From: a virus
Length of the DNA stretch: 64,000 nt
Virus genome (UHGV): UHGV-0101699
Reading direction: 5' to 3' (one strand)
A program made the translations under genes and the position numbers. How positions within the stretch are numbered: position 1 is the stretch's first letter; every line of letters begins with the position of its first letter. Below the pieces are notes generated by a model. The model saw nothing but the letters and a program-made list of their open reading frames with translations, was not told the DNA's origin and did not search any database. Positions 1 through 37,100 of this stretch are shown here, in pieces.

Positions 1-1996
1 AGACATAGTCGTCCAACATGCCTGACTGAATTGGACCTGGTCTGAAAAGCGCAGTTGTGGCCACAATGGTTTTGAAGCTCATTGGCTCGATACCACCACC
101 CAGATCTTTGAGTAGCTTCCTCATGGGGCCGGACTCAAGCTGGAACACACCTTGCGTATACCCCGCGGCGAATCCATCAAGTACTTTGCGATCATCCAGT
201 GGGATGGCATCGAGGTTGACGTCCTTACCGGTGCTCTCTTTGATGTAACGTTTTGCGCTATCCAGCAGATCGAGAGTGGCCAGGCCCAGAACGTCCAGTT
301 TGATCAGCCCCATGGCCTCGCAGTATCGTTTATCGAATGCGATGCAACGCGCGTCTCCACGTCGCTCTACAGGGGTACGTTCCGTCAGAGGTACGCCAGC
401 AACAATCATCCCTGCAGCATGGCGGCCGAAGCCACGCATCAGGTTTTGCAACTTGCTCGCCGCCTTAAATGCGTCCGGATGTTTGGTGGCGTACTTGTCC
501 AGGCTGGCCAGCTGCTCGCGCAGCTCCGACAGAGATAAACTGTCATCCTCCAGGGTCTTTAGCTCCTTGGAAACAGCCATATCCGCCGCATCAACTCCAT
601 AAATACGCGCTGTGTCGCGCAGTGCGGAAGCGGCGCCCAGATAAGTGAAGTTCGGAATGCCTGCAACATACTCTTCGCCATATCGGGCATTCAGATACTC
701 GATCACCTCATGGCGCCGCGCCTGGCTAAAGTCCAAATCCGCATCCGGCAAGTCGAGACGTTCAGGGTTAATGAAACGTTCGAACAGAAGACCATGACGG
801 ATTGGGTCAACGTTAGTAATGCCGATGCACCATGCCACCAGAGAGCCGGCGGATGAACCACGACCTGGCCCGACAGGAATACCAGTCTCGCGACTATGAT
901 TCATCAGATCGCGAACCATCAGGAAATAACCGCAGAATCCCAGGCGAGTGAGCGTTTCCATTTCATACTTGAGGCGATCGACGTAAATGCGGTGCTCGGA
1001 AGCTGGTGGCGTGTAGCCAAATTCTTTGTTGCTGAGACGTTTTCGAAGCCCTGCGACAGCCAGTTTCATCAACGTTGCAGGCTCATCGTCTGCCATTTTT
1101 GGCAGCGCCGGCGCCATCTCGTGCCAGCGCCATTCGCACGCCTTAACAATGGAGTCCTGCGTTGTAGAAGCCATGGCGGCAGACACAGATACGCCCATCC
1201 GGACAGAAAACTCTTTCAGAGCCTGCAGCAGATGACGGCGACCATTTATTGCATTGTCGCGCTGGTGGGGGATACGCAGCCGGTGTGGCTGATCGACTTT
1301 GATATTGTTCATCACCATGTGGGCGATGTCTTTGATGTCAGCGTCATCAACCCCTTCGTAATAAGCTGGGTAAAACGCAACGGGCTCGATTTTCAGTGCG
1401 CTTGCCACTTTCATGGCTCGCACGTTGATCTGGTCATAGAATGGCGTAGGGTGTGGATATACGACGCTGTAGAAATTATCGCGTCCACCGGCAGTAATCA
1501 GCGCACTAATAATTTTAGCGAAGTCCGGGCGCTGGAATACGCTGCCGATATCCGAAGTCAGTAACAGTATATTGCCTTTAGCGTATGTAGCCGCCAACTG
1601 GTCGAGCGCCAGGCGTGGCACGAAGTAAAACTGCTCGCGGGTATTGGCTAAAGTCATTAGTTCGCAAATGTCGCGATAACCTTGCTCGTTTTTAATCAGT
1701 GCGGTGAAGCAGTAGTTACGTCCACGCTCCAATGATTCCATACATCCATTAGACTCTTTAGCCAGTTTAGCCCGGTACTCGTATGTTGGATCGTCGACAA
1801 CATTCAGCTTAACACCACAGATCACCGCCATCTCATCGCCAGCTGCTCGTTGCAGGGGGATAACGCTGGCGATATTCATCGTGTCAGCAGAGATAACCGC
1901 GGTATAGCCAGCCTCCTTTGCCACCTTTACTGCGTGCTCTGCTTTCAGTGCTGATTCTCCCAGGGAAAAATCAGTCCTGACCATCAGTGCTTTCAT
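1..1996 (-). CDS. dnaE: DnaE-type DNA polymerase III alpha subunit, N-terminal ~665 aa (gene runs off window start)
   Basis: Own minus-strand translation from ATG at 1996: MKALMVRTDFSLGESALKAEHAVKVAKEAGYTAV (PHP domain) ... PGRGSSAGSLVAWCIGITNVDPIRHGLLFERFINPER (DnaE palm signature); frame open to position 1; preceded by AAGGTAAAAACAC-ATG initiation region shared with other early genes. Plus-strand ORFs 57-1564 are antisense noise. Confidence 0.8.
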   Translation of the reverse strand, partial: MKALMVRTDFSLGESALKAEHAVKVAKEAGYTAVISADTMNIASVIPLQRAAGDEMAVICGVKLNVVDDPTYEYRAKLAKESNGCMESLERGRNYCFTALIKNEQGYRDICELMTLANTREQFYFVPRLALDQLAATYAKGNILLLTSDIGSVFQRPDFAKIISALITAGGRDNFYSVVYPHPTPFYDQINVRAMKVASALKIEPVAFYPAYYEGVDDADIKDIAHMVMNNIKVDQPHRLRIPHQRDNAINGRRHLLQALKEFSVRMGVSVSAAMASTTQDSIVKACEWRWHEMAPALPKMADDEPATLMKLAVAGLRKRLSNKEFGYTPPASEHRIYVDRLKYEMETLTRLGFCGYFLMVRDLMNHSRETGIPVGPGRGSSAGSLVAWCIGITNVDPIRHGLLFERFINPERLDLPDADLDFSQARRHEVIEYLNARYGEEYVAGIPNFTYLGAASALRDTARIYGVDAADMAVSKELKTLEDDSLSLSELREQLASLDKYATKHPDAFKAASKLQNLMRGFGRHAAGMIVAGVPLTERTPVERRGDARCIAFDKRYCEAMGLIKLDVLGLATLDLLDSAKRYIKESTGKDVNLDAIPLDDRKVLDGFAAGYTQGVFQLESGPMRKLLKDLGGGIEPMSFKTIVATTALFRPGPIQSGMLDDYV

Positions 1997-3505: not shown

Positions 3506-5785
3506 TTACTCTAAAATGATACGAGATAACTCGCTGACAACTGACGTACCCAACTCTTCGACCTTATTCACTAGCGCATAGTTTTTGTAATACCGGCGCG
3601 GCGCGTCCGTAAGAATGCCAATGGCCAACAGGTTGATGTCACTTGTGTTTTCGATGTCATTCGTTACAGAGCGCAGATGGTTACTAAAGCCATCCCCCGC
3701 AGCGCATGGGGCGCCGTCGCTCTGCACAATCATGATCTTCTTGTCTTCCATACGCCCTGCAAACAGAGAAGCCAGCTGTGCGATGCTCTCGCCATCCACG
3801 TTGTTTAGCAGGGGGAAAGTCTCCGCCACACAGCCCATACGAGCACGTATCTCTGGGGAGTTCGCTTTTTCATGCCAGTTTTTAATAATCGGCAGCATAA
3901 GCGCTTCAAAGCGGCTAAACCCACGTTTCGACATAGTTGCTACATCCGGATTGCCATACGTAGTGAAGCCGGTAATGACGTTCGGAACGTGGATACGATC
4001 TAGGGCGTCAGCCAGTGTGTATGCGGATGCCAGCGCGAGCTCGATTTTTCGGCCGCCCATTGAACCTGACAAATCGATGACCTGTTGAACGCACGCGTTC
4101 ACGGCCTTGTGGTCTTCTTTTCTCCGGAATACCCGATCGTCATTCATCGACAGTCGGTAAAGACTCGCCCCATGTACGCGTCCACGACGCTGGCCAGGGA
4201 TGAACTGAACACGGTTACGACTGGCGATCGCGCGCTCCAGGTCTTTGGCCAAGGTAGATGACACCGAGGAAGACAGATGTCTCTCCACCTTCATCACAAA
4301 CAGTTTTCTGCCCTCTGGAACAATGCGGTAGCGATCTACGGGAGAATACATAGGGATTGCGCCAAAAGCTTTTCTGGCGCGCTTAATATGCTCTTCTGCC
4401 TCGTCAATTGGCCCCAGAAAGTCGTAGGAGCGATTGTATGGCCGGTAATCAGATAGTGACGCGCTGGCCAGCTCCGACTTGATCGCCGACGCCAGCGCAT
4501 CTTCGGTTGAAGAACCTATCTCTTCATCGACGTTTTCTAATGCCTTGAGAGCATCATCAAGAGACATATCGTCAGCGTGTGGGGCAAAGCCGGCATCGCT
4601 TTCATCCGAGGTGTCCCGACCCCCTTCATCCTTCTCCTTGCCACCGTCTTTATCTGCCTTGCCTTCACCGTCTTCGACAGCTTCGCTGTCATCAGAGGAG
4701 CTGCCATGCCTGTCCTCTGAGCCATCATCCGTGGACGGACTGTAATCCCCTTCATCATCTACTTCTTCCCCTACATCCGAGCCCAGAGATGTAACAGGAT
4801 CATCAGCTGTCGTTTCTTCGCTGTCAGGCAAGTCGTCAACATTTTCATGGCCTAAATCGCCATCTTCAGGTTTACTTTCTGTATCATTTATTACTTCATC
4901 ACTGTTAGGTATGTGCTTACTTATCGATTTGTCTGATTTTTCATCATCTTCATCGTCAGAGCTAAACCCATCAGGAGTGCTTTCGAGCCCCTCTTCGTCA
5001 CAAACCTCAGTATCGTCTCCAGCAGCCGGCTCATCCGAACTGTCTTCTTCTGGTTCGGTCTTTTTGGTTACAGAGGATTCAAGCTCAGGTAACGGGCCTT
5101 CTGGCATCTCAGTCATTTCACGCAGGATCTTCGCCATTGCTGCAGCAACCTTGACGCAATCCTCAGTGCTATCCATACGACGAACAGCTTCATCGACGCC
5201 AAACTCTTTCAGTACGGCAATAGGTTTATCGATGAGGTGCCAGTGCTCCTCCATGAAATCAACAAAAGTTGGTTGGCCATCCCACGCCCGTAGAACCGGA
5301 CAGAGGAAGAACTTTAGAAACAACTCGCGTTGATCCCCGCGGCACATCGCTACCGCCTTTTTAATGTGGGGATTAAAATATTTATCAATCATTAGGTTAC
5401 GTGTGGACAATAGGTTCCGCCGGCTGCCGGTGAACACTTCACTCATGCGACGTTCGATGTAGACGTCTTCCAGGGCGTTCCAGAGTCCGAATGCCTTTGT
5501 GTTGCGCATTTTCTTGACGACTTTTTCGTCTGTGAAAAGGAGATGGCCAACCTCGTGATCAAGGAATCCACGTATGGCATTCATAAGCGCAGGGCTTGCG
5601 TCATCTGGTATGGATGGGATGTTAACCATGACTGGCTCACCCTTTTTATTGTAGCGAACGTATGCTGTGTCTCCGCATTCAGCTACAGGAATATTCTTGC
5701 CCGAAAGAAGACCAACGACGCGTTTTACGGAATCGCGGAAGTCCTGTACCTCTTTGAGTACAGTTTTGCTGGGTTTGGTTGCCAT
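3506..5785 (-). CDS. cobT: CobT-like protein: N-terminal domain, long Asp/Glu/Ser-rich acidic linker, C-terminal vWA domain
   Basis: ORF 3506..5878; likely true start MATKPSKTV at 5785 (preceded by AAGGAAAAACACATG); vWA/MIDAS-like DLSGSMGG...IVQSDGAP; ~180-aa low-complexity acidic region (about 4560-5100); pairs with upstream AAA+ ATPase. Confidence 0.6.
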   Translation of the reverse strand: MATKPSKTVLKEVQDFRDSVKRVVGLLSGKNIPVAECGDTAYVRYNKKGEPVMVNIPSIPDDASPALMNAIRGFLDHEVGHLLFTDEKVVKKMRNTKAFGLWNALEDVYIERRMSEVFTGSRRNLLSTRNLMIDKYFNPHIKKAVAMCRGDQRELFLKFFLCPVLRAWDGQPTFVDFMEEHWHLIDKPIAVLKEFGVDEAVRRMDSTEDCVKVAAAMAKILREMTEMPEGPLPELESSVTKKTEPEEDSSDEPAAGDDTEVCDEEGLESTPDGFSSDDEDDEKSDKSISKHIPNSDEVINDTESKPEDGDLGHENVDDLPDSEETTADDPVTSLGSDVGEEVDDEGDYSPSTDDGSEDRHGSSSDDSEAVEDGEGKADKDGGKEKDEGGRDTSDESDAGFAPHADDMSLDDALKALENVDEEIGSSTEDALASAIKSELASASLSDYRPYNRSYDFLGPIDEAEEHIKRARKAFGAIPMYSPVDRYRIVPEGRKLFVMKVERHLSSSVSSTLAKDLERAIASRNRVQFIPGQRRGRVHGASLYRLSMNDDRVFRRKEDHKAVNACVQQVIDLSGSMGGRKIELALASAYTLADALDRIHVPNVITGFTTYGNPDVATMSKRGFSRFEALMLPIIKNWHEKANSPEIRARMGCVAETFPLLNNVDGESIAQLASLFAGRMEDKKIMIVQSDGAPCAAGDGFSNHLRSVTNDIENTSDINLLAIGILTDAPRRYYKNYALVNKVEELGTSVVSELSRIILE

Positions 5786-5804
5786 GTGTTTTTCCTTATC
5801 GAGT

Positions 5805-5817
5805 AAACAAATTGTTT
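5805..5817. promoter_or_regulatory. AAACAAATTGTTT palindrome upstream of cobT-like gene
   Basis: read directly. Confidence 0.6.
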
Positions 5818-5902
5818 TCAGATATAAGAAAATAACACTGCGCGAACAGGGGAGGAAGCAATTCGCGCAGGGGATCAATGAGTTATAGGCGGGTTATAAA
5901 TT

Positions 5903-6133
5903 TTAGTTGATTCGAACCGCGAAAGAGAGGTCGCCAGTATTGATCAGCGTGAAAGAGCCATTTTCCAGGGAAAACCGGAAAACAGTAGCGTCGCGCGCTC
6001 TAACGTTTACCTGGTGATTTGGTAACTCAGATAGTACTTCTGCAGCCTCCAGGTGTGTCAGCGCGAAAACATTGCCTACATTCAGAGCAAGTAAATTAGA
6101 TGACAATTTTTCCATTAATAGCATCCTAATCAA
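5903..6133 (-). CDS. hypothetical small protein (76 aa), divergent from HTH gene; possible Cro-like switch partner
   Basis: ORF with normal GC flanked by AT-rich intergenic DNA; no recognisable motif. Confidence 0.3.
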   Translation of the reverse strand: MIRMLLMEKLSSNLLALNVGNVFALTHLEAAEVLSELPNHQVNVRARDATVFRFSLENGSFTLINTGDLSFAVRIN

Positions 6134-6341
6134 CAGGTTTCATTTGGAGGTGATGGTACTACCTATTGATATAAAAGTTAATAAAAATGTATCGTAATGT
6201 CTTAAACAAAAATAATCAAAAAAATCAACAGAAGTACCGGATTTTACTAATTTATACCTTATTTCGTGTGATTTATGTGCGATAATTGCCTACAAATAGC
6301 CGGATGTAAGACTTTACAATAATAACCGTTGCTGTAATATC

Positions 6342-6388: not shown

Positions 6389-6769
6389 ATGACAATGGCC
6401 GATGAGAAGACCGCTCGTTACGTCGCCTACATCGATTCTTTAATCACTGTTTCGCCGAAAAGTCAGTCGGCGATCTCCCGTGAGATTGGTTACAAGAATC
6501 CCAACATTTTGTCCCTGATAAAAAAGGGAAGAATTCCGCTGCCGGTAGAGAAAGTGCTACCACTGGCAGAAGCACTGAATGCAGACCCAGTACGTCTCAT
6601 GATGATGGTTCTTGAAGACCGTCAGCCTGAGCTGGCAGATTTTTTACGAGACCAGGGCATAGCGCCGCTGACTCCGGAAGAACGTGAGGTTCTCGCAGCT
6701 TTCCGCAACCGCTTTCCGGCTCAAACTGATGGTGTTGAGCAGGTTGTGGAAGCAATTAAAAAGCTATGA
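6389..6769 (+). CDS. XRE-family HTH DNA-binding protein (candidate repressor/regulator)
   Basis: 126 aa; HTH-like SQSAISREIGYKNPNILSLIKKGRIP; perfect palindrome GGTAAGTACTTACC 34 bp upstream; adjacent to integrase. Confidence 0.6.
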   Translation: MTMADEKTARYVAYIDSLITVSPKSQSAISREIGYKNPNILSLIKKGRIPLPVEKVLPLAEALNADPVRLMMMVLEDRQPELADFLRDQGIAPLTPEEREVLAAFRNRFPAQTDGVEQVVEAIKKL

Positions 6770-7864
6770 GAAGTTTACTCTGATCAGCTCGGTGGATAGG
6801 CGATCTCCCTTCATTTTGTGGTCAATTTCTTCTAAATCTGGTTGCTCAACAATCGACGAGATGTACGATGAGAAGCTCTCAAGGGCTTCTCGCATCTGAT
6901 CCATGTAGTCATATCGGTCGTATACACGGTCGATACCTTCCAGACTATGATTCATGATCTTACGTGATACTTCCTGAGAAATATTAAGGGCTGGAAAGTA
7001 GCTGCGTGCCGTTCTACGCAGATCACGTGGGGTAAACGACTCCACTTCCCCAAGCTCTGGTCGCTCTAGAATCCGCCTCAACGCCTGGGCTATTGCAACC
7101 TTTGACATTGGCGTATCAGCTTTCTTTTTGTTCGACGGGACGAGCCACTGGCTGCCGGCGCCATAAGCAATCAATTCTTCTACGCACTTCCGCATCAGTG
7201 AGCTCATCGGAAGGGTGTGCGACCGGGCCGATTTGTTGCGAGACCCTTGATTCCATACATTTAGCTTAAGGTCGAACTCGCTTACTCTGGCCCGCAGCAC
7301 TTCATCTGGACGTCTGGCAGCTACGAGGCAAAGCCTTGCCGCCCATTTCGTGCCTGGACATACGTCGAAATAGTCCCAGACATTCCAGAATACCCAAACC
7401 TCTGCGTCCGTCAGGCATCGTTCCCGCGGGGCCGTCTTCGCGCCGCCGGCAACTTTGTTCAGCGACATATCATTCAGGGGCGATGTTTCGATAATTCCCT
7501 GGAAGGCACACCATCCCAGGAACTGCTTCATGATGGAAAAAACACGGCGACCCATCACGATCTTCCCTTCAAGGATCAGCGGGTTGACCAGCTGATTCAC
7601 CATTATTCTATTCAGGTTACTTACTTTTTCCTGAGCGATATGCGGGAGAACATGTATCAAAACACAATGGACAGCTATCTCGGGCCGGCGGCGAGTTATC
7701 AATAATGATAAGCGAGTGAATAACATGAATGCGTCGGCGAAAGTCAGATCGGCTCCCTGCATCGAGACCGATCTGGCATCCATCTGCGATGCCCGATCCA
7801 GATAGGTGATCGCTTCCTGTGACGTGTTTTCCGCTGCGCGTGCTCTGTCAAACGTGTTTTTCAT
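6764..7864 (-). CDS. int: tyrosine integrase/recombinase
   Basis: 366 aa; C-terminal catalytic region ...LRRTARSYFPALNISQEVSRKIMNHSLEGIDRVYDRYDY (R, H, Y catalytic residues in phage-integrase arrangement). Confidence 0.8.
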   Translation of the reverse strand: MKNTFDRARAAENTSQEAITYLDRASQMDARSVSMQGADLTFADAFMLFTRLSLLITRRRPEIAVHCVLIHVLPHIAQEKVSNLNRIMVNQLVNPLILEGKIVMGRRVFSIMKQFLGWCAFQGIIETSPLNDMSLNKVAGGAKTAPRERCLTDAEVWVFWNVWDYFDVCPGTKWAARLCLVAARRPDEVLRARVSEFDLKLNVWNQGSRNKSARSHTLPMSSLMRKCVEELIAYGAGSQWLVPSNKKKADTPMSKVAIAQALRRILERPELGEVESFTPRDLRRTARSYFPALNISQEVSRKIMNHSLEGIDRVYDRYDYMDQMREALESFSSYISSIVEQPDLEEIDHKMKGDRLSTELIRVNFS

Positions 7865-7962
7865 AATCTGGCCACTGTATGACGCTTTTTATACTGTGTT
7901 TATATACAGTATATTAGGCATTGTTTTTATTGAGATCAACCTAAAATACCCTCTTTTGTCTA

Positions 7963-7993
7963 ATGATTCCATACCTACCAAGTATGGAATCAT
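7963..7993. promoter_or_regulatory. perfect 11-bp inverted repeat ATGATTCCATA-n9-TATGGAATCAT upstream of int, followed by AAAGGCCTTTTTTT hairpin
   Basis: read directly; the same 11-mer recurs at 11959-11969 and 13252-13262. Confidence 0.5.
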
Positions 7994-8213
7994 AGAAAGG
8001 CCTTTTTTTGAAAATTAGTCATCAGGGCCGTGCATTTCCCGCTTGTTTGTTTGCGACATCACCCTTGTCTTTGCGTTATGTCCCATCGTTGTCCGGTGCC
8101 AGTTTAGTCATGTTTGCGTCTATGGCTGTCTCGATGCCGCCTGGTCTCGAAGGGGGGACTTCGTCAATTCATGATATGATAGCTTTAATGGTATAGCTAT
8201 GAAGGAATCATAG

Positions 8214-8573
8214 ATGATGACCTTAAAATATTATTTACGGCACTGCTTATGGGGATGGTGTGGTTATGGCTATCTGATCTATTTTATAGTGCGCGATATG
8301 AATGACGGACTAATTTTTCCTGCCTATGTTCCTTATATGCCATTTGTGGTTACATATCTTGTTTTAAGCGCCGTCCTGTACCCATTCTCATATTATACTT
8401 CGGAGAAACTAGCCCTTAAGATAATGACCAAACCCTTTTGGGATCGTCACATTGGCGTGAATAGCGGTGTGTATGGCATGTTCATTATTTTGTGGTTATT
8501 TTGCCTGCCGCTTTCGGTACCGTTATTTCTCGTATATTTATGCATACGCGCAAAGACTAGATTAAGTGCCTAA
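8214..8573 (+). CDS. pore-forming-colicin immunity protein homologue (colicin E1/10-class Imm-like inner-membrane protein)
   Basis: 119 aa, 3-4 predicted TM helices; pattern TLKYYLRHCLWGWCGYGYLIYFIV...VLYPFSYYTSEKLALKIMTKPFWDRH parallels remembered ColE1 Imm [24 protein letters not shown]...[26 protein letters not shown]; AT-rich, plus-strand, own promoter region. Confidence 0.55.
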   Translation: MMTLKYYLRHCLWGWCGYGYLIYFIVRDMNDGLIFPAYVPYMPFVVTYLVLSAVLYPFSYYTSEKLALKIMTKPFWDRHIGVNSGVYGMFIILWLFCLPLSVPLFLVYLCIRAKTRLSA

Positions 8574-8637
8574 AAAATATGAAAATTATCGCAATATAAC
8601 CACGCTACGAATGAGAAAGGCATGGAGCTGCAGGTAA

Positions 8638-9048
8638 CTACGGGTTTGTTAATTTCTGGAAGGCTGCCGCGTATTTGGCGATGTCGCTCATTTTGGCTGG
8701 ATCACTGGCTGTTTTGTGTGCCTCTTTCGGGAAGATGGCCAGCAGACTATACACGTCCTGAAACTTGGCGTGCTGGGTATAAACGAGGGCGCGGTCGCTT
8801 GTACAGTTGAACCTGTTTCGGTGACTATTTCGTTCTTGCTTGGTGAATAAGAGATGAACGTGGTAAACACGAGAGGAAACTACAGAACCAGGTTCGGTAT
8901 AGGGGCCATCTTTGCCAAAAACGGCCGGATAAAAGCCGTTTTTAAAACTCACAAAGTCAGCAAGTAAGGAGGTCTTCAGATCAGGCATTACTCTGAAGAC
9001 CGGCTCCAAAAATTGGGCGTAACTATCACTGTTCCATGTGACTTTCAT
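8638..9048 (-). CDS. YafO-like toxin (ribosome-dependent mRNA interferase family) homologue
   Basis: 136 aa; LLADFVSFKNGFYPAVFGKDGPY / HVHLLF / ALVYTQHAKFQDVYSLLAIFPKEAHKTASD resemble remembered E. coli YafO LTADFISYKRDGVLPDTFGRDALY / HIHL / HLVYCQGAFDEQAWLLIAILKPEPHKLARD. Confidence 0.5.
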   Translation of the reverse strand: MKVTWNSDSYAQFLEPVFRVMPDLKTSLLADFVSFKNGFYPAVFGKDGPYTEPGSVVSSRVYHVHLLFTKQERNSHRNRFNCTSDRALVYTQHAKFQDVYSLLAIFPKEAHKTASDPAKMSDIAKYAAAFQKLTNP

Positions 9049-9057
9049 CGATCAGCC

Positions 9058-9675
9058 TTAATGGAAGGAGAAGTTTGCGAAGACGTCCTCATCAATGAGA
9101 CCTGTCTGCGATTCGATAACCTCAACTTCGTTAAAGCACTGATTTAAAATCATCAGGAGGTCAGAAACCGCCAGACGGTACTCAGTGATAGCATCACTCA
9201 AACGTTTCAGGTACGGATGTGGCAGTTCGGCGTCACGGATGAACTTGTTAACGAAGCCTTCTAAACCGCGTATGGACAGGTCAACGTTCTTCAAGTCCTC
9301 GTAACGGCTTTCACCGAAAGTATCGCGGATCTGTTCCGCACTGTAACCTGAAATGTTATGGGTCAACTGGACGTGTTTCGCCGTCAGCTCTGCGAGCCTT
9401 TGTTCAATATCCGCAAGTTGAGCTGCGGTGTCACTCTCAGCAACCGGAATACCTTCCGTTTGCGGCAGTCTGAACTCATGGGAATCTGCAAAACCGGGCC
9501 TCGTCGACCTTGTGATGCCGCCGAAACGAGGACGCATCTTAAATTTTGTGTGTACACGCTTCGGGAATGCTTTCGGAGTGCTATTTGCATTCGAAAAGCG
9601 TGAAGCGTTAGAAGTCACGGTAGCAAGAGCATTGCTAATGACATTCATATCTTCCAAGCAATTTTCTAAATGCAT
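9058..9675 (-). CDS. hypothetical 205-aa protein immediately upstream of and co-oriented with YafO-like gene (candidate non-canonical antitoxin/partner)
   Basis: ORF with AGAGG SD; 9-nt gap to downstream gene; no similarity to YafN/Phd noticed. Confidence 0.5.
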   Translation of the reverse strand: MHLENCLEDMNVISNALATVTSNASRFSNANSTPKAFPKRVHTKFKMRPRFGGITRSTRPGFADSHEFRLPQTEGIPVAESDTAAQLADIEQRLAELTAKHVQLTHNISGYSAEQIRDTFGESRYEDLKNVDLSIRGLEGFVNKFIRDAELPHPYLKRLSDAITEYRLAVSDLLMILNQCFNEVEVIESQTGLIDEDVFANFSFH

Positions 9676-9769
9676 AAAACCTCTTTACAGCTAAATGGCT
9701 CGTACCTAAGTGTACGCTCTGTTATCAAAAGCGACAAATCAAAACGGCCCCAAACGGAGCCGTATTGTA

Positions 9770-10015
9770 TTACAGAGTGCTTGCGAAAGCAGCAAATTCT
9801 GTGTAACCGCCGATTGGAACATCGTCCAAAAACACCTGGGGAATGGTTTCTACCGGCTTCCCAACCATGCCACTCAGCTTTTGCTTATCGATCCCGGCAG
9901 CGACAATATCGATGTACTGATATTCGCCATATCCATGCCCCTGCAGCTGCTTCGCCAGCTCAACTGCCCGCTTACAGAAGGAGCAATTATCTCGGCCATA
10001 AATCACACACTTCAT
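9770..10015 (-). CDS. nrdH: glutaredoxin/NrdH-like redoxin
   Basis: 81 aa; MKCVIYGRDNCSFCKRAVELAK (CxxC active site in thioredoxin-fold context). Confidence 0.7.
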   Translation of the reverse strand: MKCVIYGRDNCSFCKRAVELAKQLQGHGYGEYQYIDIVAAGIDKQKLSGMVGKPVETIPQVFLDDVPIGGYTEFAAFASTL

Positions 10016-10398
10016 TGTTTTGCCTCGTTAAATCTTTGTTTTAAGAGATATCCTTCAAGTGGCCAGATTTTAGCGACTGCGTTCTGGCGCGCAATCTTAC
10101 GACCGATCTCCGGATCAAAGTTTTCCGGGCTTGCACAAGCTGATTCACCGGTAACGATGAATCCGTTCTCCAACACCAGTACACAAAACGTCAGTAATTT
10201 AAGCGACTCAAGATCAGCGTCGCCAGCAACTGGCACCTCTTTGCCGGCATAGGTCCCACTTGCCAGGGCGCCAGATCTGCCATCAAAGGCCGTAAAATAA
10301 TGTTCGGCGCGGATAACGCTTTGGATACGTTCTGGGGTTACTCGCGCGGCCGTTTTTCCCTTGGCCACGATTTCTTTTTCGATTTCCATGTCAGTCAT
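10012..10398 (-). CDS. hypothetical conserved phage protein (128 aa)
   Basis: ORF with AAGGAAACAAAATG TIR; start overlaps downstream stop. Confidence 0.5.
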   Translation of the reverse strand: MTDMEIEKEIVAKGKTAARVTPERIQSVIRAEHYFTAFDGRSGALASGTYAGKEVPVAGDADLESLKLLTFCVLVLENGFIVTGESACASPENFDPEIGRKIARQNAVAKIWPLEGYLLKQRFNEAKQ

Positions 10399-10407
10399 TT
10401 TGTTTCC

Positions 10408-11184
10408 TTACAGATAAGCTTGAAGCGCCACTTTGCATAGCTCAGAGCGCACGCAATCTTCGGCCGTGAACTCAATGAGCCCTACTTGGCGAGATGGCTG
10501 GAACCGCTGCAGGGCGTCCTCAAGACCAGATTTAACATTACCCGGCAGGTCGCATTGCGTTACATCACCATTCACGATGACTGTTACGTTCTCACCCATC
10601 CGAGTTAGGAACATCTTCATTTGTGACGCCGTCACGTTCTGGGCCTCATCGAGGATGACCACAGCATTTTCGAACGTGCGACCGCGCATATATGCGAAAG
10701 GTGCGATCTCGACTTTGGCCACTTCTGGTTTGAGGCAGTATTCGAGAAATGAAGCGCCCAGGCGCTTCTGGAGCACATCGTAGACGGGACGAAAGAACGG
10801 AGCGAACTTCTCGGCCATATCGCCAGGCAGGAAGCCCAAATCCTCCTCTGCCTGCAGTACGGGGCGCGTAACGATAATTCGCTCTACTTCCTTATCGAGT
10901 AATCGCTGTGCCGCGACTGCCGTCGCCAGGAAGGTTTTACCGCAGCCGGCTTCGCCAGTGGCGAACGTCAGTGCTTTGCTATCAAGGGAGATAAGATAGT
11001 GGGCCTGGGCCTCATTGCGTGCCTCTATGGGGGAAGTGTCACGCTTCGGTTTTGGGGGCAGAGCAGGGGCGGCGGTGGCCAGCTCGTCTACGATAATAGT
11101 GTCGATCTCGTATCCGAGAATACGCGATTTTGACTTAAGCGCCTGGCGAGCTGCACGTCGCGCCTGTTTACGTTTGTTTCCCAT
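10408..11184 (-). CDS. phoH: PhoH-family ATPase
   Basis: Walker A GEAGCGKTFLA, Walker B ILDEAQN; ORF extends to 11280 but terminator hairpin at 11284-11301 and MGNKRKQARR start at 11184 favour shorter form. Confidence 0.8.
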   Translation of the reverse strand: MGNKRKQARRAARQALKSKSRILGYEIDTIIVDELATAAPALPPKPKRDTSPIEARNEAQAHYLISLDSKALTFATGEAGCGKTFLATAVAAQRLLDKEVERIIVTRPVLQAEEDLGFLPGDMAEKFAPFFRPVYDVLQKRLGASFLEYCLKPEVAKVEIAPFAYMRGRTFENAVVILDEAQNVTASQMKMFLTRMGENVTVIVNGDVTQCDLPGNVKSGLEDALQRFQPSRQVGLIEFTAEDCVRSELCKVALQAYL

Positions 11185-11301: not shown

Positions 11302-11456
11302 TGGATTTTGCGCTGAAAAAGTGTTGCTAAGATGCTAGAAGCTATGGTTAAAGAACGTCTGCCGTAATGTCTATCACAGCGTTGAGCGGTCTGGCCATGG
11401 TGACAGGCGGAGTCTTTTCGATAAGAAAAACAAAACCAAACCGCTCAACGCTGTGT

Positions 11457-11543
11457 TGGCGGAGGATAATGGAATCGAACCATCATCGCTTTCGCAATGG
11501 GACGGTTTTCAAGACCGCTTGGGCGCCATGCCCTCTATCCTCC
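11457..11543 (-). tRNA. tRNA-Ser (anticodon UGA), type II with long variable arm
   Basis: reverse complement GGAGGAT...GCGGT-CTTGAAA-ACCGT...GATGG-TTCGATT-CCATT-ATCCTCC-G-CCA; acceptor, anticodon and T arms pair; CCA encoded. Confidence 0.65.
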
Positions 11544-11690
11544 GTTCGTTGTGACGCCAGATGCTTATCTTCTGGTTGCTTCAACGAGCTGCAATTCATC
11601 ACAACGGTAAGGGCATTCAGGGAATCAGATCCGTCGCGAACAGCCAAAGAGCGCGCCTTCCTTGCTGTCGTCCAAATACCCTTACCGTTG

Positions 11691-11765
11691 TGGCGATGGT
11701 GGGTGGATTCGAACCACCGACCAGTTGATTAACAGTCAACCGCTCTACCACTGAGCTACACCATC
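11691..11765 (-). tRNA. tRNA-Asn (anticodon GUU)
   Basis: reverse complement GATGGTG-TAGCTCAGTGGTAGAGC-GGTTGACTGTTAATCAAC-TGGTC-GGTGGTTCGAATCCACC-CACCATC-GCCA. Confidence 0.75.
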
Positions 11766-28164: not shown

Positions 28165-31100
28165 TTAAGCCAGAGAGATGGAGCCAGTAGTTCTGTACAT
28201 CGAGACAACCCCTGTAAACCGGAACTGACCGCTATCGCCACGATTCGGCCACTGAATGGTAATCTGGTGACGTTGACCGAAGTTTGACGCCGGGATACGG
28301 ATTGAGAAGATTGATGTTTCAAAGTCCTTGCCATCGTTTCCAGAGTCAAAAGTCCAAACGGTCGTTTCATCAACGCGAATTGTTACGTTCTGACGCCATA
28401 CCTGAACAATCGCAACGGAACCATTGAACACCATACGCCGTTCAAAGGGCATACCGTCAATCGTTGCAATCAGGTAGCGCGTGCCGGATGAGGTATTCCC
28501 GGAAGCTGGCCAGTTTTTAACAACACGGTCGGTCATTGTCACAACGTCACCAACAATTTTATTGGCCTGAACAGTGCCAAGCACAGTGCAGTTCTCGTTA
28601 ATAGTCACGTTATTAAGCACACCAGTATTTGCGTGAACTTCACCACGAATAACTACGTTGTTGAACTGTGAACTACCGTCTTTTCCAATTCTCCAGCCAC
28701 TTGAACCGTTAACGAAATTGTCAGATCGGATTTCACCGCCAATTTTTGCATTGGTGATGGAGCCATCCTTAATCACAGCGGCATTCATGTAGGCAACGCC
28801 ATTTTCCACAACAAATGGTGTGGTCGTGTTTCCGTTAGAGGTATTGATTAAGCCGAAGCGATCAGCCTGAACCAGAAACTGGCTCTGCAAATTTTTGCCA
28901 TCGATACCTAAAGCGATACCAGCAGCATACTTTTTACCGTTGCTGTTGGTTTCCATTTTGACCATCCAGGTACTGTTAACGTTGCCGTTTTCGACAACCG
29001 TTTTCTTCAGCTCCTGCAGCTCGGCTGACTGGCCTCCTACCTGAGCTGTCAAATTCGTCTGCTGCTGAGACAGTGCGCTTATCGTTGTGGCCTGGGTCTG
29101 CTGAGTTGACTTAATTGCCGCCAGAGAGGTGGTGGCGTTATTCAACTCCGTCTGGTTTTTGATGTTTGCCGATGCCTGCGCGTCAATTTGCGACTGCAAG
29201 CTGGTATTCAGCGACGACTGCGTTTTCTCGTTGTTGGTGATGGTCTGCGCCATCTGATCAACCTTCGAAGACGCATCATTCACCTGGGACGTCAAAGAGG
29301 ACAGCTGAGACGCCTGGGATGTCACCTGCCCTTCTACATAGGTAACACGTGAGGTAAGGCTGGTGAGCGCGGATGCGTTCGCATTAGCCGAATCCTGTGC
29401 CTCTTTTGCGTCCGTGATATCGGTGACAACAACGTCATCGATATATAGATCATACCCCGGTGTACCAGTGCCAGTTGTGCCGCGGGTAGATACCCAAAAT
29501 GCGCCGCGAGTGTGGCCAGCGGCTACACGGAGCGTACCGGTGAATTTCTTCCATGCGCCTCTTGCACCCAATGCGGCTTCATTGATAGTGATTGCCGTCG
29601 GCCAGTTATTGTTGTTGGCAGCGTTTTGGGTCTGCAAACCAACGAGCGTTGACCACCCAGAGGATGGCGACTGATCTGCCGGCATCATCGCCCAGAGTTC
29701 AATGCGGAATACCGCATTTTCACGCAGAGCAATCCACTTACCGATGGTTTTATCGCTGTTTCCGCCCTCACCGGCGCTGCGGGAAACACGCAACGACTTC
29801 GTTCCGCTTCGTTTCTGAGAGCTGACGACGACCGCACGCGAGCCGCTGATCTGCTGGTTTTCGGAGTACGTCTCCAGAGAACCATCAAACCACGGGTTGC
29901 TCCCCATCGCCTGAACAGTGCTCAAAGAGTTTTTGAGCGAAGTTGTCTGGCTGCTCTGGGTTTCAATTTCTTTCTCGTTCTGCGTGACGCGGTTCGTTAA
30001 TGCCGTTAACGCAGCTGCATCCGCTTTCTTCGAAACATTTGTGTTTGTGGTCGCAAGGTCATTCTTAAGTTGCGTAACCTGGCTGCCCTGGCTGGTGATG
30101 TCATTCTCTGTCTTGGTCACACGACTATCGAGTTTAGTGATCGCGCTCGAGTTCGCCTGAGTTTCAACAGAGTCGGTCACATCGACGACATAAAAATCAT
30201 CAAAGTACATCGCGCCTGCGGACAAGAAAGCAGTGAACTGAACGTCAGCAACGACATCCTTTGTCGCCTTCCAGGTCCAGGACACTTCCTGCCAGTTCGA
30301 AGTGAACGGGCCATAAGCCTTACTTGCGATTAGACCGTTACCTTCTGCCACACGGAATTTTGTGTTGTCAGTCGACTGAATGGTGGTATTAGGGTCCTGC
30401 TTTGCCCAGATGCCAATTTTGTACGACCGATCCTTTTTGAAGGAGATCTTCTGGCCCACGCCTGCAGAACCACCCGCCGCCAGTTTGGCGGCTTTGGTGC
30501 CAAGATGTGGAACCTGCAGCGTTACCACCGTGGCAATCCCGCTCCAGCCTGTATAGCCCTCCGTACCACGCTCAAAAGACGGGTTTACGATCAGGTTCCC
30601 GGGGATCTGGCTTGCTGCATCCACGCTGGCGTTACTGGACGCAAGGCTGTTTTCCAGTGCCGTTGTCGAGGAGCTCAGGGAGTCAATATTATCCCCCTGG
30701 GTCTTCACTGTGTTCTGGAGCGTGGTAATTGCCGACGCGTTCGCATCAGCCTTCATCATCACACCGCCGGCGGCGCCCAGTCCCATCATTACCCCGTTCA
30801 CAAACTCGACTGAGGTCGAGATGTGGGCGGTGCCGTCGCCACCGGTTGGCGCACGCAGTTCCAGACCATCGCCAGGCTTCATGCCTTTGCGGCCAAGGAG
30901 AATGTAGGCACCACGATACGGTAGAGAGTTGACGACTTCGGATGTGCCACCAAGAGATTCCAGGGCAGACAATACTTTACCTCGGTTGCCAGTTGGCTCA
31001 TCGAATGTCAGGACACAAACGTAAGTCCCACTGGCCAGTGCCTCGATATCAGCCGACATCGTGGCACCATTATTCGCGCTGCCAAAGACATCGTATGTTT

Positions 31101-34100
31101 TGGATGTCGCAATCACCGTTGATCCGTCGCTGTGTTTTGCAAAAGTGACCAGCGCCCAGCTGCGACCAGGGGTAAACAGGTTTTTGCCGCTTTCATCAAA
31201 AACCCCAGGAGTTACGCTGTTGCCATTCCCCCGTGCAGTGACAGTAAACACAGTGCGACGGTTCATCGAGGCCTGCAGGCTGGTAATGCTACTGTTCGCC
31301 GCGGTTAAATCGCCCCCCTGAGATGTCACCGTGTTCCGGAGATCCTGCAATGCAGAAGCATCAGCTTTCTTGGCAATATTGTTCTGAGCTGTCGACAGCC
31401 CGTTCTCCAACGATGTGGTGCGATTTCCGATAGAGCTAATGGAAGTGCCTTGCTGATTCACTTTCGTTGTCAGCGAATCCACAGCCGACGCACTGGCGCT
31501 ATCAGACGGAGACTCGTTCCAGTCGGAAACAACGTTACCTACCTCAAACTTCGGACTGTTGATGTACACCGTCTGGTCTTTGGAGGTATTGCTCTCGATA
31601 CGGCACAGAATCAGGCGCTTGGTGCCCGTGGTAGGTGTCTGTTTCCACTTAACCCAATAGCGGGCCCATGAAGTGGTCAGCGTGAACTGCGCACGACCAT
31701 CAGTGTTGTTACCTTTCGCACCCTGGCTGGTCTCGATAGACGTTGTGGTGTTCGGATTGTAGAAGAACGCCGTCATCGTCTGGCCAGTAACGCCGCCTTT
31801 CGCATAGAAGCTGTAAACGTACTCACCTGCATCGACCGGCGACTCAAGCGTGATTTCCCGCAGATCCTTGTAACCGGAGCCGGCTTTTACAGTTGCGCCA
31901 ATTACCGCATTACCACGATACGTATCGCTGACAACGTTCGACCAGCCGGTCATATCGCCGGAGTTCTTGATCAGGTTTGTACCGCCGACAGAAATTGCAT
32001 CAACCTTGTTGTTCAGATTCGTGACAGAAGAACTCGTTGAGTTAATGTCTTTTTCGGTCTGGGTAACACGGTTGGTCAGTGCCGTCAGAGCATTTGCGTC
32101 CGCTTTTTGAGCAACGTTTGCATTTGTTGTTCTCAAATTGTTCTCAAGATTGGTAGTGCGTGTACCAATACTTAAGATGTTCTCCCCCTGCTGATTTACC
32201 GTAGAGGTCAGCGAATCAACCGCTTTCGCCGTGGCGTCGAGGGAATCCTGGACTTTGGAGGAGTCGGTTACGTTCCGCAGATGCCAGTCAGTCACATACC
32301 AGACGGTGCCGAATGGGCTGGACTGGTTAATTTGCAGGAATGGACGGAAGAAGCCGCGATCGACAATCCCCTGAGTAATTTTGAATCGCCAGGTTACTCG
32401 CTGCCATGTGGCCGACGCCTTGCGGTTGCCGCCGGATGACAGAGGCGCGCCCACGCTGCCGCTTGGCCTTGTTGCGGTTCCGAGATACAGGTTGAAATCA
32501 GCGGAGCCGGTACCACACGCGACGAGAGCAGACATTTCATAGACATCCCCCAATGTCGCCGGAATAGCAGCAAAATTTGGGTGATGGTCGCGAGCCGCAA
32601 TGCGTGCGACATAAGCGTATGGGCAATTGGCTGGCACGCCCTCAGACGAGCTGGAAACCACAGTGAAGCCCATCTGACTAAACTCTGGGTCAAATGTCGG
32701 GTTGCTAATCAAATCGCCACTTGTCGCATTCCCTGCGCGTACAGATGAATTAAGCGCAGTGATACTGCTATTCGCAGAGGATAAGCCCGACTCTGTTTGA
32801 TCGACGCGCCCGGACAACACGCTTAAAGCGCTCTGATCCGCTTTTTTACTGACGTTGTTATTGGTCGTTGCCAGGTCATTTGTCAGTTTGGTGATGCTGT
32901 TACCCTGACTGGTGATCTGGTCACCCTGTTGGGAGACGGTCGAGTCCAGTGTCGAAATCGCATTGGCGTTAGCATCTGCTGTACTTTGCGCATTGTAGGC
33001 ATCAGTTACTTCGGTAATGACCAGGTCATCAATGAGGAATGAGTTTCCCGCCTTAACGCTGCTAACGTTAGGAATAGAAATCCTCACCATTGCCTGCTTA
33101 ATACCGCTCTTCGTTGATTTCAGGTAACCAGAAACCTTCGTCCATTGAGTTGAAGAGAGATCCTTTGCCGCTTTGGTAACTGCCGGCCACTGCCAGGAGT
33201 TGTCCTGATACTGGAGCGACAAACCGATAGAGATCTGTGCATTCTCGGCCATAGCGGTACTCTTGGCATCCCGCTTAACCCAGCATTCCATATAGAAGAC
33301 TGCGTTATCGCGTACCTGGAAACCGCTGAAAATGTGATTATCGCTGTTATCAGTTGCGTTAGCGTTGTAATCATTCGGACGCGTCACACGGATGCACTTA
33401 TTACCGCCATGCGAGTCATCAGTGGTCACGATAACGCGATTATTTGATAGATTGTGGCCAACCGCGTAGCTTTCAAAAGTGCCATCAGGAAGCAGATTAG
33501 CGCCGCGTTTGGATTGCTGGTTCAGAGAGCTGCTGAGCGACGTAATGTTGCTGTTCGCCGCCGTCAGACCGGACTCCGTCTTCTCTACCCGACCTGTCAG
33601 CGTAGTGACTGCCGACTGATCGGCCTTTTTCGCGATGTTTGCGTCAGCGGCTTCGAGGTCATTGGTCAACTTAGTGATGCTGTTGCCCTGGCTGGTGATT
33701 TTGTCACCCTGCTGTGTCACCGTGCTCGACAACGTAGACAGCGCATCGCTATTAGCCTTGATCTTCACCTCATCCGTGATATCAAAGACCTTAAATGTAT
33801 CAACCCAGATTTCGGCATTAGCCGGGTGCGCGTAAAGCTTAAAGTTCTGGCCATCAGCGTTAGAGGCAGTAAGTCCAGTCTCCCAGGTAATGGTCTGCCA
33901 CTCACTGGTTAGTGTGACGTTTTTATCTTCATAATTGCTGTCGGTCTGGCCGATTTTATTCTGGCGCCGGATCAACATGTTCATCGCCCCGGACACGCCC
34001 TTGGCTTTAACCACAACACGATATTTGCGCTGACCATTAAGCGGCAGCGGCTTGTTGTTGTTGGAGAAGATGCCTGGGCTGGTAGTGGTCGTCCGGTTCA

Positions 34101-37100
34101 GCTTAACCCCAGCCTTACCATCACCGAAGTTGCCGAAAGTGACGCCTGCCGGATACTGGGTATCCCACGCAGTTGCACCCTGCAGGAAATCGTAGTTCGG
34201 GATCAGGTTGTCACCGGCGTTTCTGGCAGCGGTCAGGGTGTTATTCAGGTTCGTGATGCTGTTACCCTGGCTGGAAATCGTATCCCCCTGCTTGGAGACC
34301 GTATTTTGCAGCGTAGACAGCGCCTGTGCATCTGCCTTATTCGCCAGATTAGCGTTGGTCTGTTCGAGGCTATTTCGCAGGTCAGTAACGCTCTGTGAGG
34401 TGCTCGTGACGCGATCACCTACGGTGCTGACGTTTGAGGTGACGGCGCTAATGGCATTCGAAAGCGCGTTCATCCCAAGAGCAGAATTCAGCTGGGCTAC
34501 CTTCTCGGACAGTTTAAAACCGAGGTTAATGTAAGCCTGACCAGTCCATTGGTTCACCAGGAACTCAACCGTGCTCCAGCCAGCTTTCAGATCAAAGCTA
34601 ACCGTATTCCAGCTCGCATTACCAAAGGCAACCCTAACACCGTTCACGTACACGGCGCCCGTATCATCAAAAACACGAGAACCTGGTGCCATAGTGATGG
34701 TGGTATCAGCATTGACTTTCACGAAGGCTTTGTAATGCGCGATCACGTAACTGCCGGCGCTCGCAAAGTCCAGTTTTGCCGCGTCAGGAACCTCATCGAT
34801 CGAGATTGGCGCCTTACCGTTGATATCGCTAAAGGTCGGCTCAGTGGTATTGTTCGCCAGTTGTACGTTGTATACGCTACGCACCCACATGTTCTGGCGG
34901 CCGTTAACCATCTGGTTTGACAGCGAAGTGATGCTGTTGGAGTTCGACGTAATGTCTTTTCCCTGCTGGGTCACGGTGCTGTTGAGGGTTGATAACGCAT
35001 TGGACGTCGCATCAATCGCTTTCTCATTGCTCACGTCAACGCAGAAGACGTCATCGAGATACATATAGCCGGAAGCGACACTTGCGCGCAGAGACACAAC
35101 CACGCTGGCGGTTTTGGCTGGCGTATACTCGCCGCTAATAAGTGCCCAGTTAGTCGACAGCCCGGCGCCGGTGATCGGGATATCCTTTAACGGCGTCAGA
35201 TCTGCGTTTCGAAGGCTAATCTTGTTGTTGCCGGCATTATTGATCGCGAAGTCAGCGGATTTGCGAACCCATGCGCCGATACGATAAGTCTTGCCAGCCT
35301 GCAGCTCGACCGTTTGATTGCAGCCTGAGTCACCGCCAGAGGCCAGTTTACCCGCCTGGATGATGTATTTCCCCGATTTGGGGTTTTGGGCCTCCAGCAG
35401 AGTCCAACCAACATACTCCCAACCTTCGAAACCACGTTCAAAAGAGTTGTTTTTGAGCATGTTGCCGATGATCGCTTTCGAGGCATCCGCATCAGCATTG
35501 GCGTTATCCAGCGAGTTTGACAGGCTGGTGATGCTCTGGGACTGGCTGGAGATCTGATTTTCGGCAGCAGTTACGCGGTTTGTCAGATTAGTCACAGCTG
35601 AGGCGTCGGCTTTGTTCTTGATGCTGTTCTGCATCGAAGTGATCTGCTGCCCTTGGCTGGTAATGGTGCCCTCAACAGACGATACCCGAGAGGTCAGAGC
35701 ATTGGTGGCACTGGCGTTCGCCTCAATCGCCAGGGCATCAGTGACGTCAACAAAACCAACATCATCGAAGTACTGGGAACCGGTTTTGAGAGAAGACATG
35801 ATCGATACGTCAACTTTACCGGTCAGCGTCGCCTTCCAGGTATCAGAGACCTCTTTCCATGTTTCATCTTTGGGCAGATTCTCCGGACGGATCGGAATCT
35901 CTTTGAGCAACGTGGCTGCGCCAATACGCAGTTTGTTGTTGCCAGGGCTGCTGATTACCGCATCCGTGGTGCAGCGCACAAAAGAGGACAGCTTGTATGT
36001 CCGCCCTTCGACGACGCTTACAGATTGCGTGATTTGCACCGTGCCAGCGGCGCAAACAAGAATTTTACTACCAGAATGGGGCGCACTCGCCTTGATAATA
36101 CTGGATACGCTGTTCCCTGCAGACCACCCTGCCAGGTCACGCTCAAAGGAGGCGTTAACCAGCAAATTGCTCGGATTGCTTTTGGCAGTATCGGTATCGC
36201 TCTGGATATCGCTCAGCGAGTTATTCAGGGTGGTGATGCTTTCACTCTGGCTGCTAAGGGTTTTATCCTGCTGGGTTACGGTCGACTGCAGACCCGTGAT
36301 CGCCTTGCTATTCGCAGACACACCAGACTCAACACTTCCTACGCGATTGTCCAGCGTAGACAATGCCGCACCTTGTGATTTAAGGGTGTTGCCCTGCTCT
36401 TCAACCTTCTGGGAAATTGTCTGTACTGCACTGGCATCGGCCTTCTGGCCAAGGCTTGTTTGCAACCCGGTAATCTTGCTTGCCTGGGAAGCTTGTTCAG
36501 TGGACAGCGTATGCAGCTCTTCTGCAACAGAGGCTTTGTTTCTGTTGAATTCAGTCTGCAGGGATTCACGCGCACTCGCTTCCGCAGCATCGGCAGTGAT
36601 ACGAGCATTTTTCTCCTGATAGATCAGACCGGAGCGAATGTCGTCCAGATTTCCGCTTTCAGATGAACCGCGGATTTGTGCAGCCAATGTGCTGCGCGCC
36701 TGCGCTTCGGCGGTATCTGCATTCGCACGAGCCTGCTGCTCTTCCTGTAACGCGGCCATGCCTGCGCCCGGCGTCGGTCGACCAACGGCGATCCAGTCGA
36801 ATAACAGGTAATTGTCCGCATCCTGACCCGAAGTGAAATCGAAGCGGAAACGACGAATCGTTGTCGAATCCCGCCACTCAATGTCGTGCAGGGTCAGAAT
36901 CGCAATACCCTTGTCGTCGTATTCCGGCTCATTGATAACCACGGAGCGACCAGCATTCCAGCCAGTTTCATCAGCGCCGATCCAGAACATTCTGGCGTTC
37001 CAGGTTGGGTTGCCAACCTTTTTAACGCGCATCTTAATGAAACGATAAGCATGGGCATCGATCGTCAATCCGTTAGGGGAACGACAGGTTGAGGTCGGAT

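Follow-up and report, generated by a model that had tools for sequence, protein, structure and literature searches.

A likely orphan immunity gene of the colicin E1/Ia type carried as cargo by an SSU5-related Klebsiella phage-plasmid

Introduction

The immunity protein of colicin E1 (ColE1 Imm, or Cei) has three membrane-spanning segments. It is located in the inner membrane, where it binds the inserted helices of the colicin channel domain and blocks channel opening. Immunity proteins of the colicin A/B/N type have four helices and about 175 amino acids. Here, we examine a gene, imm, from the UHGV virus genome UHGV-0101699, of which a stretch of 64,000 nucleotides was analysed (referred to in full as the window). 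The window belongs to an SSU5-related Klebsiella phage-plasmid. Our favoured reading of the sequence, which we hold to be likely, is that the product of imm is an orphan immunity protein directed at a pore-forming bacteriocin of the E1/Ia type, and that the gene forms part of the accessory cargo of this element.

Immunity genes that have parted from their toxin have been described before. Orphan colicin immunity genes were reported on 243 E. coli plasmids and read as "immunity gain" in warfare between bacteria, with pore-former immunities being the commonest orphan type (146 of the orphan genes found; Nat Commun 2025, PMC12546727). The window resembles these cases in that an immunity gene is kept without its toxin. 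However, the survey was confined to E. coli plasmids and required >99% identity to toxin-linked immunity genes, whereas no toxin-linked member of the window gene's clade is known that exceeds 56% identity, and the gene itself is found in Klebsiella and is borne by a phage-plasmid. The second comparison is with the telomere phages of Klebsiella, whose ImmA is an inner-membrane immunity protein to the pore-forming toxin TelA and is expressed in the carrier state (Sci Adv 2025, PMC12042878). In both systems bacteriocin-related cargo resides on a Klebsiella phage-plasmid. We rejected telocin immunity as an identity for imm, since ImmA, a protein with four predicted helices that is encoded together with TelA, represents another immunity class, whereas the window protein is smaller, of the E1 type and toxin-free. 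The carriers also differ, the telocin phages having an N15-like linear backbone in contrast to the SSU5-like circular backbone here.

Results

The imm protein in the colicin E1/Ia/Ib immunity family

The gene under study is the following open reading frame (ORF):

8214–8573, plus strand: imm, 119 amino acids, ATGATG start; predicted inner-membrane protein of the colicin E1/Ia/Ib immunity family

We compared its product to authentic ColE1 Imm, a protein of 113 amino acids read from plasmid ColE1 (NC_001371; locus L004, positions 59–400, minus strand). BLASTP gave a full-length alignment with 29% identity (E 6e-12). The initial annotation had described a plus-strand ORF of 119 residues that parallels ColE1 Imm in length, and the two proteins are indeed collinear over their full length. 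A custom hidden Markov model (HMM) was constructed from four distant immunity proteins, each encoded physically beside a pore-forming colicin: ColE1 Imm, an Ia-type protein from a pair on an E. coli IncI plasmid, and one protein each from Arsenophonus and Serratia. When run on all 1,167 six-frame fragments from the window, this HMM matched the imm ORF alone (57 bits, E 1e-16), the runner-up fragment having an E of 1.5. Within Pfam, the match was to PF03526, "Colicin E1 (microcin) immunity protein", which scored 26.9 bits where the gathering cutoff is 25 (E 4.3e-6). The Pfam immunity profile search proposed in the initial annotation therefore found a match above the cutoff, although the relevant model is PF03526 ("Microcin") and not the Colicin_im named there, which we take to be the colicin A-type immunity family in Pfam. 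The imm protein falls into PHROG family phrog_22982, labelled "unknown function", which matches true ColE1 Imm as well (E 1.3e-8).

Comparison of the two sequences reveals paired local motifs, TLKYYL in the window protein with SLRYYI in ColE1 Imm, YPFSYY with CPYSKY, and FWDRH with FFERR. These motifs had been pointed out from the sequence beforehand and are present in both proteins, with the correction that the second one starts with C, not Y, in ColE1 Imm. The shared features can be summarized as an xLKYYL N-terminus, a (Y/C)P(F/Y)S motif closing the second hydrophobic segment and an FW(D/E)R loop, together with a C and a P conserved in the last hydrophobic segment of both proteins. The positions conserved across the family are kept in the window protein (Y6, Y7, P57, F58, E64, W76, C97 and P103). 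On these sequence comparisons, the imm protein is a member of the colicin E1/Ia/Ib immunity family. The gene differs from that of ColE1 Imm in having no adjacent colicin or lysis gene, and in being located on a phage-plasmid, not on a small Col plasmid.

The hydrophobic profile of the window protein contains a clear second segment at residues ~39–59 and a clear third at ~80–114. The ColE1-like helix layout suggested in the initial annotation is thus evident for these two segments, while the first is weak by the Kyte-Doolittle measure.

Two other immunity classes were tried and rejected. The colicin K-type family (PF17500, CKI) showed no match at E ≤ 10, and BLASTP against Cki of pColK-K235 reached E 0.19, with just a nine-residue N-terminal motif (MxLKYYL) aligning. 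Like the window protein, Cki is small, and it protects against a pore domain that resembles that of E1; the N-terminal M-x-L-K-Y-Y-L is common to both. The "E1/10-class" label given earlier is accordingly retained as E1/Ia/Ib-type and dropped with respect to the colicin K family, with which colicins 5 and 10 presumably group. The four-helix colicin A/B/N class was set aside because PF03526 was the sole Pfam family found at E ≤ 10 and because 119 amino acids are too few.

Toxin-linked relatives of imm

Distant homologues of imm on plasmids were, in every case examined, positioned tail-to-tail with a gene for a "colicin-like pore-forming protein". The closest colicin-linked relative is the Imm of pMS-37d, with 51% identity and 73% similarity over 113 residues; it belongs to the same subfamily as the window protein, and 27 positions are invariant in the subfamily alignment. 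Homologues at 51% identity are found on two types of small mobilizable Enterobacter hormaechei Col plasmid, pMS-37d and pEh65_4, where the gene is annotated as "hypothetical" or is not called. On these plasmids the colicin gene and the lysis gene flank imm, which is encoded on the other strand, in a ColE1-like layout. Thus, the Enterobacter genes sit in a standard colicin-imm-lysis operon, whereas the window gene is without such a partner.

The pMS-37d colicin has a PF01024 pore domain that is nearest to those of pyocin S5 and colicins Ib, Ia and E1, a colicin A-like N-terminus, and a receptor-binding coiled coil resembling that of E2/E3/E9. Toxins of this type (at least ~78% identity) are restricted to six E. 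hormaechei plasmids in the plasmid collection. Searches with the pMS-37d pore domain and with the subfamily profile returned only rare Enterobacter-type colicins, truncated remnants and further orphans.

Two side observations concern these and related colicin loci. The E. hormaechei Col plasmids carry a gene for a protein of ~140 amino acids, named "cell envelope integrity protein TolA" by the annotation pipeline PGAP (L001, 2446–2865; L018, 4406–4828), and such a plasmid-borne TolA fragment beside a Tol-dependent colicin could interfere with colicin import. At a different locus, L028, the colicin is seemingly split into ORFs of 288 and 132 amino acids.

Orphan status of imm

We searched the window for pore-forming colicins by tblastn with five colicins and by phmmer with the pMS-37d colicin, and neither search gave a significant match. 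The window contains no PF01024-type sequence, and no colicin remnant flanks imm, whose convergent neighbour encodes a YafO-family toxin. The pMS-37d pore domain gave zero matches in 50,697 phage records, which include the full genomes of close relatives. Members of imm's own clade were examined in Klebsiella phage-plasmids, a Salmonella contig and chromosomal copies from Raoultella, Citrobacter and another sample, and no pore-former was present nearby in any of these contexts. The homologue on the Salmonella contig adjoins a two-partner secretion (TPS)/ShlB locus that is contact-dependent inhibition (CDI)-like. We class the window gene as an orphan bacteriocin immunity gene and not as part of a colicin operon. 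The initial annotation had predicted an immunity gene with no cognate colicin, and this holds for the window, for the phage records and for the surroundings of the close homologues examined.

Loci in related bacteria indicate how such orphans may arise. On the chromosome of a Leclercia sp. metagenome-assembled genome (L016, 4713–5724), the lysis lipoprotein gene and imm are intact, and the colicin is truncated at its 5' end, leaving the last ~84 residues with 83% identity to the pMS-37d colicin. On two metagenomic contigs (L026, 3610–4743; L027, 490–2048), an IS66-family insertion truncates a pMS-37d-type colicin, of which the last ~149 residues remain, and imm is again intact. We interpret the Leclercia and IS66 loci as decay intermediates, representing two routes to orphan immunity genes.

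Orphan genes extend into the wider subfamily. This comprises 59 clusters, mostly named "hypothetical" and without a Pfam call, and the four members that we sampled were all orphans, located in a prophage-like region or in regions with H-NS-like genes. About 45 related protein clusters from Enterobacteriaceae carry the name "hypothetical" and lack a Pfam call. A search of genome contigs with the subfamily alignment recovered three loci only.

An orphan gene on a phage-plasmid raises the alternative that the immunity fold no longer encounters a colicin and has been repurposed as a membrane factor that serves the phage, for example in holin modulation or in superinfection exclusion directed at the membrane-inserting or DNA-entry proteins of another phage. 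The clade at ≥64% identity is never beside a toxin in the inspected contexts, its cognate toxin was not found, and several settings are of phage or prophage character: the present phage-plasmid, a prophage-like region by icd in Raoultella planticola, and a member in Enterobacter asburiae that lies beside tail-fibre and invertase genes. However, no PADLOC defence model matched, all family members with a known partner are paired with a pore-forming colicin, and the family-wide conserved positions are retained. Furthermore, orphans are also located in non-phage chromosomal islands, and by the TPS/CDI-like locus, which fits interbacterial competition better. We therefore consider repurposing to be unlikely, and favour a role in bacteriocin immunity.

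The carrier element and the prevalence of imm

The window is 98–99% identical to the Klebsiella phages vB_KpnS_p4727, pJN2-26 and vB_Kpn_1825-KPC53, and ~81% identical to parts of Salmonella phage SSU5. Its genes include those for a tape measure protein, portal, terminase and a central tail fibre of 4,058 amino acids, and the matching records comprise hundreds of circular, non-mobilizable Klebsiella plasmids of 106–113 kb. These features identify an SSU5-related (pKpn-like) Klebsiella phage-plasmid of ~110 kb, which persists outside the chromosome; pKpn is the group name for such phage-plasmids (PMC9600943). The "tellurite/colicin resistance" gene of the SSU5 papers was considered as an identity for imm and rejected, as it is a different gene.

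We found imm in 251 plasmid records and the backbone recombinase (≥90% identity) in ~313. The gene is thus present in about 80% of this lineage within Klebsiella, and the E. coli and Shigella cousins of the phage-plasmid are without it. The sole match in an E. coli complete genome is plasmid pKP389-3 of strain CRE389 (L003), which is a Klebsiella-type phage-plasmid. Most genes of pKP389-3 are annotated as frameshifted pseudogenes, probably reflecting a poor assembly, and the imm product is cut down to 78 amino acids in that annotation.

A resident toxin on which carriers depend for imm could account for this prevalence, in which case imm would be an orphan on the element and not in the cell, the cognate bacteriocin being encoded on the chromosome, on another plasmid or in the part of the element outside the window. 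The window covers 64 kb of the ~110 kb element, and pore-forming colicin-like genes do occur in 13 Klebsiella plasmid records. Nevertheless, complete near-identical phage genomes of 110–120 kb were searched and contained no pore-domain match. The 251 plasmid records with imm stand against these 13 Klebsiella pore-former plasmids, all with <60% identity to the pMS-37d colicin, and no plasmid bearing a pore-former encodes an Imm close to that of the window. In addition, known immunity genes directly adjoin their toxin. A cognate toxin elsewhere in the same cell thus appears highly improbable to us, and we retain the orphan reading at the level of the cell as well as the element.

Other genes of the element were noted in passing. 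The 4,058-residue protein is encoded by a single ORF at 28165–40341 on the minus strand. Its N-terminus matches PHROGs for central tail fibre J and tail host-specificity proteins, and several families with unknown function match further along, indicating a giant tail or host-range protein. The window contains two tRNA genes on the minus strand, tRNA-Ser(TGA) at 11457–11543 and tRNA-Asn(GTT) at 11691–11765, and the tRNA-Ser region (~11444–11618) is ~89% identical to a region in phages P7 and D6. A protein of 790 amino acids (3506–5878, minus strand) has a long central stretch that is highly acidic and rich in serine and aspartate. It is called "porphyrin biosynthesis / CobT-like" in related records and adjoins an AAA ATPase gene, the two forming a conserved pair in the SSU5 family.

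Purifying selection and a putative mobile cassette

We estimated the ratio of nonsynonymous to synonymous substitution rates (dN/dS) by the pairwise Nei-Gojobori method, which gave 0.11–0.37 among orphan copies in comparison to 0.18 for the toxin-linked Enterobacter pair. The imm gene is under purifying selection. This bears on whether imm is a non-functional hitchhiker, the leftover of a decayed colicin operon kept by linkage to the backbone alone. The decay intermediates in relatives, namely the Leclercia locus with a truncated colicin and imm and the IS66-disrupted loci, would be compatible with such an origin, as would the position of the gene in a low-GC variable slot and its absence from some relatives. 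However, the ORF is intact in ~250 records, with dN/dS in the same range as for the colicin-linked pair. The promoter-like block and Shine-Dalgarno sequence are conserved across unrelated contexts, no colicin remnant flanks the gene in the window, and repeated acquisition by different replicons argues for selection. Passive carriage is therefore very unlikely in our view, and a functional immunity gene is preferred.

Two elements upstream of imm were identified:

8172–8180, plus strand: putative extended -10 element, TGATATGAT (TGn + TATGAT), inferred from its consensus and its conservation across contexts
8201–8206, plus strand: Shine-Dalgarno sequence GAAGGA, 7 nt 5' of the imm ATG, kept in the upstream alignment

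The block that opens with TGATATGAT and closes with the Shine-Dalgarno sequence is preserved in five unrelated genomic contexts, and the similarity to the copy on a sister phage-plasmid (L021) starts exactly at 8172. A generic terminator scan around imm found none that was convincing. From the conservation of this block across contexts, we infer that imm is a self-contained, constitutively expressed cassette of ~400 bp.

The sister phage-plasmid (CP057316.1; L021, 3229–4847) carries an 81%-identical imm beside three cargo genes that are not present in the window. These encode a Colicin_M-domain protein (276 amino acids), a 124-amino-acid YebF/Cmi-like protein and a homologue of the Acb2/Tad1-hairpin anti-defence proteins. 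The YebF/Cmi-like protein is probably the immunity protein of the Colicin_M-domain protein. Some SSU5-like phage-plasmids thus appear to carry a complete colicin M-type toxin module, and the sister genes mark the region as one of bacteriocin and anti-defence cargo.

The association with Cmi-like genes is seen elsewhere. At another locus (L006, 5472–6345; a 76%-identical copy), a Cmi/YebF-like gene is divergent from the adjacent E1-type imm homologue even without the Colicin M toxin, and in Raoultella planticola (L007–L009, ~5705–6234) a Cmi/YebF-like remnant of 37 residues lies upstream of imm. The Cmi-like and E1-type immunity genes appear to move together. We also entertain, as a tentative idea of low probability, that the window gene belongs to a lineage of E1-type immunities that exists only as orphans and is spread by phage-plasmids as the ~400-bp cassette, sometimes with the Cmi-like gene.

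Genomic surroundings of imm

The genes around imm in the window are as follows:

6764–7864, minus strand: tyrosine recombinase ("integrase") of the phage-plasmid backbone (PF00589, 38.1 bits)
8015–10407: variable cargo slot between the recombinase region and phoH, containing imm, the YafO toxin gene, its partner, the glutaredoxin gene and the Gp49-like gene
8638–9048, minus strand: YafO-family toxin gene, 136 amino acids, convergent neighbour of imm (PF13957, 78.7 bits)
9058–9675, minus strand: partner of 205 amino acids, upstream of the YafO toxin gene (phrog_13546, "unknown function"; no Pfam match)
9770–10015, minus strand: glutaredoxin gene (Pfam)
10012–10398, minus strand: Gp49-like gene (Pfam)

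The limits of the slot are defined by comparison with Klebsiella phage GArcari-2022b, where similarity to the window ends at 8014 and restarts at 10408. In its place GArcari-2022b has a 286-amino-acid protein and a different YafO pair, and phage Cyrano has yet another gene. The YafO pair in the slot of GArcari-2022b and sister phage-plasmids consists of a 138-amino-acid YafO and a partner of 174–175 amino acids, unlike those of the window. The 205-residue partner in the window is unusually big for an antitoxin.

The G+C content is 39.7% for imm and 40.1% for 7865–8640, in comparison to 49.9% for the whole window. The AT-rich patch described in the initial annotation is real in this sense, although the difference is modest. 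Its observation that imm lies on the strand opposite to its neighbours agrees with the minus-strand recombinase and YafO toxin genes that flank it. The recombinase does adjoin imm, as had also been stated; however, the element is an extrachromosomal phage-plasmid, so imm is not a moron at the attachment site of an integrated prophage.

Discussion

We propose that imm probably shields the host of the phage-plasmid from a competitor's pore-forming toxin, with ColE1 Imm as the model by analogy. A promoter of its own would drive steady production of the imm protein for as long as the cell harbours the phage-plasmid, and the protein, with its predicted three membrane spans, would be placed in the inner membrane. 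When the channel domain of an incoming bacteriocin inserts, Imm may bind the membrane helices of this domain and keep the channel from opening. Carrier cells would then survive the toxin of the competitor, which would favour the phage-plasmid too. The benefit would be purely defensive because the element carries no toxin.

Several observations weigh against this proposal, and they concern the fold, the expression and the specificity of the protein. The PF03526 match is marginal, spanning only residues 49–82 on a short model of 55 positions, and the imm protein has no NCBIfam match at E ≤ 10. With respect to the Pfam score, authentic pMS-37d Imm obtains just 17 bits with PF03526, which is below the cutoff, and thus the model under-detects the subfamily shared by pMS-37d Imm and the window protein. 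The first hydrophobic segment (~10–26) aligns with the first of ColE1 Imm but is less hydrophobic, being rich in W/G/Y/C and under the Kyte-Doolittle threshold. AlphaFold2, run on a shallow alignment of seven sequences, placed helices at 17–30, 36–55 and 86–118, in a model that is unreliable (pLDDT 50.7, pTM 0.32). A generic promoter scan found no plus-strand promoter directly upstream of imm, there being no matching -35 element.

The relationship to a toxin raises further points on the same side. The clade at ≥64% identity, which includes Klebsiella, Raoultella and Salmonella members, is orphan wherever its context was inspected, and no toxin-linked Imm with >56% identity to the window protein was found in a collection of 5.8 billion proteins and the contexts examined. 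A pore domain with 66% identity to that of pMS-37d is accompanied by an Imm with only ~27% identity (L028, 3069–4773), and the pores of colicins K and E1 are 63% identical while Cki and Cei are assigned to separate Pfam families. Imm therefore diverges much faster than the pore domain, and the 51% identity to pMS-37d Imm is accordingly no guide to cross-protection.

The family assignment is already public. Many Klebsiella plasmid records carry the RefSeq/PGAP label "colicin E1 family microcin immunity protein" for this exact gene, and GenBank phage records call the same gene "hypothetical". Orphan colicin immunity has likewise been documented, and the conceptual addition made here is small. 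In the paper library searched, we found no paper discussing the imm gene in SSU5/pKpn-like phage-plasmids and no experimental data for its protein. The case is of mild interest in that the clade is seemingly orphan-only and is very widespread in a phage-plasmid lineage that is itself clinically abundant.

In practical terms, phrog_22982 and many homologues currently named "hypothetical" could be re-annotated. If the lineage does exist only as orphans, temperate phage-plasmids would hand on ready-made bacteriocin protection through infection, the range of the protein might take in several pore-formers or a toxin family yet unsampled, and part of the 59-cluster subfamily would represent unrecognised orphan pore-former immunities in Enterobacteriaceae chromosomes. 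If imm is protective, some four-fifths of the phage-plasmids in this very common Klebsiella pneumoniae lineage would make their hosts resistant to a class of pore-forming bacteriocins, which would bear on the klebicins and colicins proposed as anti-Klebsiella agents. It would also provide a clear case of a phage moving defensive "warfare" cargo without the weapon.

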